A DNA stretch of 64,000 nucleotides from NCBI RefSeq assembly GCF_057098645.1, contig NZ_CM169472.1; one strand, 5' to 3'. Positions 15,001-18,000 of this stretch are shown one piece after another. A program made the position numbers. The first letter of the stretch is position 1. Each line of letters begins with the position of its first letter.

Positions 15001-18000
15001 GTTAGCGCGCAGGGAGAAGAGGGAGGGACCCCGAACAGGGGAGTGCTATTTATCTGGAAGGATTCTGTTGATGAAAATCGAAGAATTACGTGAAATTTTT
15101 AGTGAAGATGGCCTCTACACTGCGTGAACCGCCCCGGGTTTCCTGGAGAGTGTTTTATCTGTGAACTCAGGCTGCCAGATCATCGTTTCCGATGGAAGCA
15201 TAATAAGCTTTTTCTGCTTCTGCCGGAGGAGTATGGCCCAGCCTTTCCAGCAATCGTCGATTGTTATACCAGTCCACCCACGTGAGTGTGGCCAGTTCCA
15301 CTTCTGCACGGTTTTTCCAGCTCTTACGGTGTATTACCTCCGCTTTGTAAAGACCATTGATGCTCTCCGCCATCGCGTTGTCATACGAGTCACCTGTACT
15401 CCCTGTTGATGCCAGCAGTTTTGCTTCTTTTAGTCGCTCCGTATAGGCCAGTGATACATACTGAGAACCTTTATCACTGTGATGGACTGTGCCGGACGGC
15501 CGACGGGCCCACAACGCCTGCTCCAGTGCATCCAGCACGAATGTCGTTTCCATAGACGATGAGACTCGCCACCCCACGATACATCCGGCAAACACATCAA
15601 TGATGAACGCCACATAGACGAAGCCCTGCCATGTGCTGACGTAAGTAAAATCAGCCACCCACAGCTGGTCAGGACGTTCTGCCACGAACTGACGGTTTAC
15701 GCGGTCGCCTGCGGAAACGGCTTTCCGGCTGACGGTAGTACGGACCTTTTTACCCCGGAGAACACCGGCAAGTCCCATAACCGCCATGAGACGTGCCACA
15801 GTGCATCTGGCCACTCTGATACCTTCCCGTAACAACTGACGCCAGACTTTACGCACACCGTATACCTTGTGATTTTCATCGTATACGCGCTGTATCTCTT
15901 TCTTCAGCCAGTCATCGCGCTGCGCACGGGCACTGCGTTTATCCGGATGATGTCGCTGTTGCTGACAGTGGTAATACGTTGACGGGGCAATATGCAGTTC
16001 GCTGCATAGCGGTCCGACCCCGTACTGCTCACGCAGCTTATCCAGCAGTGGCATCATTTTTTCCAGAGGCGGTCGAACTCCGCCTTCGCAAAATAAGCGG
16101 AAGCCTGGCGAAGGATATCGTTACTGCGGCGCAGTTCACGATTTTCACGCTCCAGCTCTTTCAGACGCTGACGTTCAGCGGTGGTGAGCCCTCCATCACC
16201 GCCCCCGGTATCCCGCTCATGCTGGCGAACCCAGACACGCAGAGTCTCCGGCGTACAGCCAATCTTTGGAGCAATGGAACAAATTGTCGCCCATTGTGAG
16301 TCATATTCGCCCTGACTTTCCAGAACCATACGGACTGCCCGTTGACGGACTTCAGGGGAAAAACGAGTATTTTTAGTCATCCTGTTTACCTCTTTCTCAG
16401 GAAGTTTAGTCTCCAGGATTCCCGGGGCGGTTCACCTTCAACGGAGGCATTTAATGCCATATGTAATGTAACCGATGCCATATCTCTTGATACATGGAAA
16501 AAAACAGTTAAACGTTTTTACGATACGCTGGTGGTGCAGTTTGATATTGAAGAAGCATGGGCAGAACAACAACTGAAAAAGGTGACCAGATAGCTTTGTT
16601 GATTTTTCCCGAATCTGTGGTAAATTTGCCCTAACGATGGGCGTTTTATGCCTGACGTTAGAAGATTTTTTACACCCGTCGCCAGGCGGGTTTTTTTATG
16701 ACTGAAATCACGCCAGTACAGTAAACGCGCTGGTGGTTGTGAATACCGGTCTTTCAGCTTGCTGGCTTTTTCGACAAGAGTTATTGGTGTGTCACGTTAA
16801 CCGGAAAAAGGAAAGTTTGAGAAACGCGATCTGGCACAGGCGGTTATTAATGCTGCCTACCTGGTGGCCTGTGCAGATGGTGAATGTGAGGCTTCCTAGA
16901 AAGCGAAGATCGAACAGGTACTGCGTAATCAGCCTGCGCTGTCCGCGTTTACGTCAGAAATTAATGCGATTAGCGCAACCATTATCGGTCAGCTGGATAC
17001 GAACTTTAAAATTGGTCGTCGTGCGGCGTTACGTGAGATCGAGGATGTGAAACACGATACGCGTGAAGCGGAAGATGTGCTGGATGTGGCGGTGGCCATT
17101 GCGGAGGCAGACGGCGAAATTGAGCCGGAAGAGCGCAAGGTGCTGGAAGAGATTGCCGGTGTTCTGGGTCTTCGTCTGGAGAATCACCAGTGACGGTAAA
17201 ACTGCGCCTGGCTGTGGCTGCACTCCTGCTGTTTCTGGTGGTGATGGTGGATTTCACCAGCAGAATCATGTCGGTGCTGGCGGATGGGGTGCTGGTCTGC
17301 GGCATTGTGGTATTGCTGTGGCCGGTGATAAAAAGAAACAGCCTGCATAATGCTTGATTTTTTTGTTTACTGTTTATTAAAAATACTACTGCATGGTGAA
17401 TCCCCCTGTGCGGAGGGGCAATCAGCAACCAGGTATATGTGATAATCGCGGATTCAGGTGCTGATACTGAATTCACCGGGAGGCACCCGGCACCATGCAA
17501 GAAAAAGAATGTGCATGCAAACATGCCCCTCTCCGGAGGGGCTTTTTTATGGGTAAAAAATGCCCGAATGGGTTCGGGCAATAGCATGAGATACTGATAT
17601 TGTTGTGTTGTTATCGTGTGGATTTTAACCAGGGTTTATCAGGCTGCGCAACTGCGTGGCCTTTTTTCATTTCTTGGGCTGTAGTCCCCGTGTGTCATTC
17701 AGGCTTCCGGACTACAGCCCACTCCATATCTGATTTAATACACTATCCCGGCCGGGAGGAATAATGACATTTAAACATTATGATGTTGTCAGGGCGGCGT
17801 CGCCGTCAGACCTTGCGGAAAAGCTGACACACAAACTGAAAGAGGGCTGGCAGCCGTTTGGTAGTCCGGTGGCCATAACCCCTTATACCCTGATGCAGGC
17901 GATTACAGCAGAAGGTGATGTGGTGGTCAGTGGTGCAACTGAGCCGGATTGGTACTACGTCATCGTACTGGCCGGGCAGTCCAATGCCATGGCTTACGGT

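Follow-up and report, generated by a model that had tools for sequence, protein, structure and literature searches.

A conserved stem-loop in the nanS-p leader of Shiga toxin-converting and related prophages: a candidate RNA element of late gene expression

Introduction

Leader structures and pseudoknots that sequester the Shine-Dalgarno (SD) sequence of the following gene are known from the rpsO/S15 and T4 gene 32 operators and from the stem-loops that govern the choice of start in lambda S, and sites of the T7 R1.1 type exemplify the RNase III processing hairpins of polycistronic phage transcripts. RNase III substrates typically comprise about 20 bp (about two turns) of double-stranded RNA. 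By its title, a 1988 study by Daniels and colleagues reportedly deals with sites of RNase III processing on the late transcript of lambda. Here we describe a perfect inverted repeat upstream of the esterase gene nanS-p, which lies in a 64,000-nt stretch of DNA (assembly GCF_057098645.1, contig NZ_CM169472.1, one strand; hereafter the window) and shares features with both types of element.

In common with the SD-sequestering leaders, the nanS-p hairpin is a stable 5' leader structure with a loop that could pair with both the SD and the start codon of the gene behind it, but its loop is long and variable. Its resemblance to the RNase III hairpins of phages consists in the intercistronic position within a long transcript ahead of the first conserved late gene and in the internal mismatches of many alleles, whereas its stem spans 13 bp rather than about 20. 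A comparable hairpin of lambda (L131, 717-768, corresponding to lambda 45116-45167) has 13-nt arms (GGATTTGTTCTAT/ATAGAGCAAATCC) with one G·U pair and a pyrimidine-rich loop of 26 nt, and it ends 18 nt upstream of S; the nanS-p hairpin shows no sequence similarity to it, and our covariance model of the nanS-p element has no match in L131.

Results and Discussion

The inverted repeat upstream of nanS-p

The repeat and the start of the gene that follows it are composed as follows.

17675..17687, plus strand: left (5') arm TGGGCTGTAGTCC, in perfect pairing with 17709-17721
17688..17708, plus strand: loop of 21 nt, CCGTGTGTCATTCAGGCTTCC
17709..17721, plus strand: right (3') arm GGACTACAGCCCA
17722..17751, plus strand: A/U-rich spacer of 30 nt from the hairpin to the ribosome-binding region, constant in length and variable in sequence
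17752..17766, plus strand: nanS-p translation initiation region (TIR) CCGGGAGGAATAATG, with the SD GGGAGGA at 17754-17760 and the ATG at 17764
17764..19614, plus strand: nanS-p, an open reading frame (ORF) of 616 aa for a SASA-family sialate O-acetylesterase with a DUF1737-type N-terminus

The two 13-nt arms are 100% complementary. A first reading of this DNA from the sequence alone (the sequence-only reading) had described perfect 12-nt arms at 17676-17687 and 17709-17720, which is correct, and an additional T-A pair extends them to 13 nt. It had also let the repeat end 44 bp before nanS-p; the upstream position stands, but the measured distance to the ATG is 43 nt from the 12-nt arm or 42 nt from the 13-nt arm. 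In 100 first-order Markov simulations of the window, perfect inverted repeats with loops of 3-50 nt occurred at a mean of 0.20 per window when the arms had 12 nt or more and 0.04 when they had 13 nt or more, as against 3 and 2 in the real window. The inverted repeat is thus present far beyond chance expectation, which bears out the earlier view that a chance origin is unlikely. RNA folding of the repeat segment yields -28 kcal/mol (z = -6.0), and none of 200 shuffled sequences is equally stable.

The window holds two other perfect repeats. One of them, AAAACCCCGTTTG (13 nt, loop of 7 nt) at 21425-21457, resembles, with its A and T tracts, a bidirectional terminator; the other is GCAAATGTTAAC (12 nt, loop of 9 nt) at 23880-23912.

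Conservation of the stem as plus-strand RNA

The leaders compared here were sampled without reference to the hairpin, namely as viral contigs that match a pattern in the ribosome-binding region only, and the 58 distinct upstream sequences correspond to about 25 distinct leader variants from five clearly different lineages. All variants share a common architecture: the lower helix spans 7-8 bp and the upper helix 4-5 bp, with 0-2 mismatched positions between the two, and the pyrimidine-rich loop measures about 11-30 nt. RNAalifold independently predicts the same hairpin. Standard pairs are formed in 87.8% of the alignment cells, compared with 28-48% in slid controls (3' partners shifted by 1-3 columns), and the lower eight stem pairs are paired to 95.5% over the 25 variants. 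The most conserved stretch of the element in the alignment comprises the right arm and the adjoining 3' end of the loop. The variant of the window, which is the Stx1 type, represents the only lineage without an internal mismatch; the perfect 13-bp stem is a trait of this allele, the most stable one of the family.

Pairing has been maintained through changes on both sides of the stem. Five of the 14 pairs are changed on both sides (in nine cells), a number that none of 500 shuffles attains and that compares with 0-3 pairs in the slid controls, with the caveat that these covariation statistics derive from only about five independent lineages and that these prophages recombine freely. The outermost T-A pair of the window corresponds to C-G in the Stx2 types, CTG/CAG is replaced by TGG/CCG in the L012 lineage, and L035 carries ACTGGC/GTCAGT in place of GCGGGC/GCCCGC. 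In the L013/L036 lineage, the upper stem TAGTCC/GGACTA has been converted to TTTTTC/GGAGGG, a combination that pairs only via G·U. The distinct variants contain 28 G·U pairs as against 4 A·C mismatches, and the plus-strand fold is more stable than its minus-strand counterpart in 15 of the 25 variants. The gain in stability of the plus over the minus strand amounts to 11-16 kcal/mol in L013/L036 (L013, -22.1 versus -5.8; L036, -23.2 versus -12.3) and to about 4 kcal/mol in L012 and L035.

The strand asymmetry, the variable spacing of the arms and the central mismatches in the commonest alleles are indicative of a plus-strand RNA element and not of a DNA palindrome, and the substitution patterns show the hallmarks of a stem that is under natural selection as plus-strand RNA. 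The sequence-only reading had offered both options. Its proposal of an RNA stem-loop in a read-through late transcript gains support from the compensatory and G·U changes in the five lineages and from the late induction of nanS-p, and its alternative of a palindromic protein-binding site on DNA is not supported, given arm distances of about 11-30 nt, mismatches in the middle of the arms and strand-asymmetric substitutions. According to published data, nanS-p is upregulated by 1-2.4 log on treatment with mitomycin C and ranks with those late genes that respond most strongly to norfloxacin.

Pairing of the loop with the nanS-p ribosome-binding site

Two segments of the loop are complementary to the TIR of the downstream gene. 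Positions 17692-17699 (GUGUCAUU) match the start-codon region AAUGACAU, and positions 17702-17708 together with the GG of the right arm (CUUCCGG) match the SD region CCGGGAG. The duplex of loop and TIR in the window has a predicted energy of -20.2 kcal/mol (8 + 7 bp), and the loops of the Stx2 type attain -21.0 kcal/mol with UGCCAU/AUGGCA, compared with -14 to -15.6 ± 3 kcal/mol for shuffled loops (p of about 0.05 in the two main lineages and 0.016 for L016). The 3' end of the loop, which abuts the right arm, is kept as YUUCC while the rest of the loop varies, and it is complementary to the SD in nearly all variants. It reads CUUCC in the window and the Stx2 types, UUUCC in L013/L036, UUUCG in L012 and UUUUC in L035. 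Between alignment columns 79-85 and 131-137, 97.1% of the cells are pairable (42-84% in slid registers), and every substitution replaces a C that faces G by U. With the left arm barred from pairing, the most favourable remaining fold is the pairing of loop and TIR. The spacer from the hairpin to the SD measures 30 nt in 24 of the 25 variants (columns 101-124 are free of gaps), and its sequence differs at many positions.

The function of the element is probably the control of nanS-p translation or messenger RNA (mRNA) stability. The repeat would encode a cis-acting RNA stem-loop in the untranslated nanS-p leader, placed on a long late transcript that would extend from the late promoter through the cassette of "moron" and small RNA (sRNA) genes, under antitermination by Q, into nanS-p and the lysis genes. 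In the proposed mechanism, the hairpin loop presents a pyrimidine tract (CUUCC) beside the 3' arm that may pair with GGGAG of the nanS-p SD, and in the window variant the second loop segment would pair across the start codon. The anti-SD directly adjoins the 3' strand of the stem and hence conforms to the geometry of an H-type pseudoknot. Stacking of the stem and the loop-to-SD helix would give rise to a predicted pseudoknot of this type that occludes the ribosome-binding site, and the occlusion may keep nanS-p translation low as long as the structure is neither melted nor cut. A leader element that modulates translation via pairing between the loop and the ribosome-binding site is a reading that we put forward tentatively, as a possibility favoured by the conserved 3' end of the loop, the loop-to-TIR energies and the fixed spacer of 30 nt. 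It is doubtful, though conceivable, that in Stx-converting and related prophages the putative SD-occluding pseudoknot specifically gates the translation of nanS-p, in which case the stacked helix of about 20 bp might be the substrate whose cleavage or melting frees translation.

Several observations weigh against a control of translation by the loop. Its pairing with the TIR is no better than that of shuffled loops in L013/L036, L012 and L035 (p 0.3-0.5), and a pyrimidine-rich loop matches any purine-rich SD. The SD side is invariant, in part since the loci were retrieved by a pattern at this very place, and double-sided changes between loop and SD are therefore impossible in the sample. Complementarity to the start codon is limited to two related lineages, with C·A mismatches in the variants L014, L089 and L125, and a small predicted UCCC/GGGA hairpin competes for the same SD bases. 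The nanS-p gene of Stx2c/1717-type phages has an unrelated leader that lacks this hairpin, which is thus dispensable to the gene. Our literature search found no experiment or transcript map for the site.

A joint variation of the loop (UGYCAU) and codon 2 (AUGRCA, with ACA or GCA as codon 2) is suggestive, but we do not claim it as covariation in view of mosaic recombination and three exceptions.

Genomic surroundings and excluded identities

The repeat is preceded by a compact array of regulatory features.

17641..17672, plus strand: intrinsic-terminator-like hairpin AGGCTGCGCAACTGCGTGGCCT with a T run, detected by a terminator scan (site 17641-17662) and ending a few nt 5' of the repeat
17555..17616, minus strand: gene of the AgvB anti-sRNA (Rfam RF02702, 96.5 bits, E = 2e-18), antisense to the late transcript
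17365..17554, plus strand: gene of the STnc100 sRNA (Rfam RF02076, 147.8 bits), with its own terminator at 17525-17542 and convergent with AgvB

The complete order on the 5' side of the repeat is an IS3-family element (15167-16434), a 3' remnant of Q, a TerB-family pseudogene, a DUF3927 gene, STnc100, AgvB and the terminator-like hairpin, the last of which is kept in other lineages with altered stem sequences. This region is the "moron" slot located 3' of the late promoter. Tree et al. (2014) described convergent sRNAs between a moron gene and a conserved hypothetical ORF, and the arrangement in the window matches their description. In Stx1 and Stx2 phages this slot contains stxAB, followed by the same arrangement of sRNA, terminator, hairpin and nanS-p. 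The hairpin stands where the variable moron/sRNA cassette gives way to the conserved late genes. Near-identical public records annotate nanS-p as SASA family carbohydrate esterase or as 9-O-acetyl-N-acetylneuraminate deacetylase.

The AgvB gene lies 59 nt upstream of the hairpin, and the repeat spans the positions 59-105 bp upstream of the presumed AgvB start. A candidate minus-strand promoter of AgvB consists of TTGCGC (17651-17646), a gap of 18 nt and TAAAAT (17627-17622), located 6 nt before the 5' end at 17616. Its predicted -35 box would coincide with the palindromic centre (GCGCAA, 17646-17651) of the plus-strand terminator hairpin, and one short sequence seems to serve two functions on opposite strands, as the centre of a terminator and as the -35 box of an AgvB/AsxR-type gene. 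The motif (T)TGCGCAA is kept in all lineages, also in combination with a different minus-strand sRNA, and the -10 box reads TAAAAT or TATTAT.

The repeat shares with intrinsic terminators the G+C-rich intergenic stem-loop, and it adjoins a genuine terminator-like site. It differs from them in the lack of a U run after the stem (CTCCATATC on the plus and AGAAATGAAAAAAGG on the minus strand; the bases that follow the stem are CUCCAUAUC and AGAAAUGAAAAAAGG, respectively) and in a loop that, with 21 nt, is longer than usual; moreover, the terminator scan lists the site 17641-17662 and not the repeat. A similarity to the dispersed repetitive extragenic palindromes and bacterial interspersed mosaic elements (REP/BIME) exists insofar as these are imperfect palindromes that are transcribed within operons and could stabilise mRNA, but the nanS-p element occurs in one copy per leader and has no sequence relation to REP. 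An ORF of 54 aa at 17600..17764, whose stop overlaps the nanS-p ATG (TAATG), is not conserved, and the occurrence of stops in all frames and of non-triplet indels in other lineages rejects a coding function. The Rfam search with cmscan (14000-21000, E up to 1) returned STnc100, AgvB, AsxR, sok, ALIL, isrK and rsmX and nothing over 17675-17721, and no transfer RNA or transfer-messenger RNA was found in 10000-25000; the hairpin belongs to no curated family tested. Neither the promoter scan nor our reading of the sequence revealed a plus-strand nanS-p promoter just upstream of or within the repeat, an acceptable -10 box being absent. Since no convincing promoter was found between the terminator and the hairpin, the element would be transcribed by read-through.

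The IS3-family element contains orfA and orfB with an ALIL frameshift pseudoknot and directly adjoins what is left of the Q antiterminator gene, its last 160 bp (15167-16594). In comparison with Escherichia coli O145:H28 12E115, about 2.65 kb are absent from this place, comprising a hypothetical gene, DUF968, rusA and most of Q. The prophage therefore lacks a Q of its own and would depend on Q from another prophage for the expression of its late genes, including nanS-p. Upstream of the insertion sequence (IS) element we found an isrK-like match at 14829-14910 (30.5 bits, below the gathering score of 50) and a match to the sok antitoxin RNA at 14497-14667 (105.9 bits), which implies a toxin-antitoxin locus of the hok/sok type in the prophage.

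Alternative explanations

The stem-loop could act on the late transcript as an RNase III site or as a barrier that, after cutting, protects the mRNA of nanS-p and the lysis genes (5' side) or that of the moron or toxin (3' side). A possible cut site is the 62-nt region just upstream, which is perfectly complementary to the abundant antisense AgvB/AsxR RNA. Such a role as processing or stability hairpin is the main rival to the control of translation but appears somewhat unlikely, even though the very stable fold (-28 kcal/mol) is conserved as RNA, is located at the junction of the variable cassette and the conserved late genes, lies 59 nt downstream of the antisense sRNA gene, where the late transcript would form a perfect duplex with the antisense RNA, and finds a counterpart in the lambda hairpin of 13 bp, with its 26-nt loop, 18 nt upstream of S. 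The stem of 13 bp in the window, in place of which most relatives have 8 + 4-5 bp interrupted by an internal mismatch, stays below the usual length of RNase III substrates and approaches 20 bp only if the stacked loop-to-SD helix is assumed. A 3' barrier may already exist in the form of the terminator hairpin that precedes the repeat by a few nt, and a processing function leaves the conserved 3' end of the loop, the stronger conservation of the right side and the fixed spacer of 30 nt unexplained. The conservation of the right arm and the adjoining loop bases (UUCCGGACUUCAGCCCGC) beyond the needs of pairing would also be expected if the stem-loop bound a phage or host RNA-binding protein or a trans-acting sRNA and acted through this partner, and regulatory sRNAs surround the locus. 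We nevertheless consider such a partner improbable: no candidate protein is known, the portion of the published Sakai sRNA table that we consulted lists no Hfq-bound peak at the corresponding Sakai position, and the complementarity of the leader to the neighbouring STnc100 and AgvB does not exceed that of shuffled sequences (p = 0.17 and 0.31, respectively, by a method that is crude for long RNAs).

It is still less probable that the hairpin is a functionless relic, for example of an old terminator or the end of a mobile element, that is carried along with the nanS-p module. Some nanS-p genes indeed do without the hairpin and the prophage of the window is decayed, as documented by its truncated Q, but the compensation seen at five pairs, the preponderance of G·U and the preservation of the fold through large changes of the loop are at odds with mere carriage. 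The least credible explanation, and one that is largely refuted, is a palindromic DNA operator for a dimeric regulator, situated between the divergent AgvB promoter and nanS-p. Its position 59-105 bp upstream of the presumed AgvB transcription start and the perfect symmetry of the arms in the window contrast with a spacing of the half-sites that ranges from about 11 to about 30 nt, with one or two mismatches in the arm centre of the commonest relatives and with the arms of L013 (TTTTTC/GGAGGG), which do not form a DNA palindrome at all. Compensation by G·U is meaningless in duplex DNA, and its bias towards one strand (28 versus 4) points in the same direction.

NanS-p is the first conserved gene after stx. 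With the Shiga toxin genes on one side and the lysis cassette on the other, it shares the single transcript responsible for both the production and the release of the toxin. If the hairpin determines how strongly nanS-p is translated or how stable the adjoining mRNA segments are, it would alter the relative dosing of toxin, esterase and lysis proteins, and a pseudoknot gate, if true, would uncouple the esterase output from the expression of the toxin and lysis genes on the shared transcript. If it is only a stabilising hairpin, it is an ordinary feature that is still worth annotating. The conserved structure represents a cis-acting element in the late gene expression of Stx phages, and our literature search, including papers on the stx-nanS-p region and the neighbouring sRNAs, found no prior description of it. 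The motif is small, well-defined and directly testable.

Distribution of the nanS-p leader

A query of 241 nt around the repeat matched 304 phage records (Stx1a, Stx2a and other Escherichia and Shigella phages), 225 of them at a coverage of at least 80%; for comparison, the nanS-p N-terminus is encoded in 350 phage records. With a query of 126 nt, ranging from the terminator to the ATG, 3374 places were found in 1105 of 5426 complete E. coli genomes (median of three and maximum of nine places per positive genome). Several copies of the leader are present in EHEC strains. The listed E. coli places are all associated with genes of the esterase type (SASA, DUF6645, DUF1737), except for one deletion remnant without a gene. 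The sequence-only reading had named absence from related prophages as an observation that would speak against its proposal; the element is kept in lambdoid prophages with Stx1, with Stx2 and without stx. A covariance model derived from the leader variants yields exactly one strong plus-strand match per fetched locus with this leader, always just 5' of the nanS-p ribosome-binding site. Its sole strong match in the 64-kb window is the element itself, and no others occur elsewhere in the approximately 1.2 Mb searched. The hairpin is strictly tied to this nanS-p ribosome-binding region. Outside Escherichia, a scan of genome contigs for the leader returned, besides one Escherichia contig and one probable contaminant, only 18 matches attributable to chance, all of them in G+C-rich genomes of unrelated organisms. 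The probable contaminant is an 888-bp contig recorded as 'Xanthomonas pisi DSM 18956' (L153, NZ_JPLE01000080.1), which at 239-338 harbors a hairpin of the Stx2 type (78.9 bits) together with the nanS-p ribosome-binding region and is probably derived from E. coli or a phage.

The leader accompanies the conserved N-terminal part of a late-protein family whose members are annotated differently. In E. coli O157:H7 PV15-279 (L132, 2624-4570), the 126-nt leader block is 100% identical and precedes a gene of 648 aa annotated as DUF6645 domain-containing protein instead of SASA esterase. The most divergent nanS-p-like gene found (54.6% identity), that of phage CMS-2020a (L127), is preceded by an unrelated A+T-rich leader, in which a perfect hairpin of 10 bp (GCTAAAATCG/CGATTTTAGC) lies at about 1449-1500, and a second inverted repeat in L127 (ATCGTTA/TAACGAT) displays the SD AAGGAG in its loop. 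The hairpins in the unrelated leaders of L127 and of L130 (Stx2c type) are weak (z = -1.6 and -1.8, respectively) and were not used as evidence.

Two loci are interrupted within the arms. In phage Stx2a_F451 (L126, AP012532), homology stops within the right arm at about 1650-1660 (GGACTTCAGCC|gtaagcg...), and from about 40 bp further on an ISEc8-associated ORF follows; this insertion parts stx2 from nanS-p. E. coli STECUZB006 (L133, NZ_CP171883) contains a prophage remnant with a deletion junction in the left arm at about 1540-1550 (CTTGGGCTGTA|TCCGCTGCATTACAGCC), after which the right-arm-like sequence TTACAGCC occurs again, and this configuration suggests that the deletion arose via recombination at an arm-like sequence.

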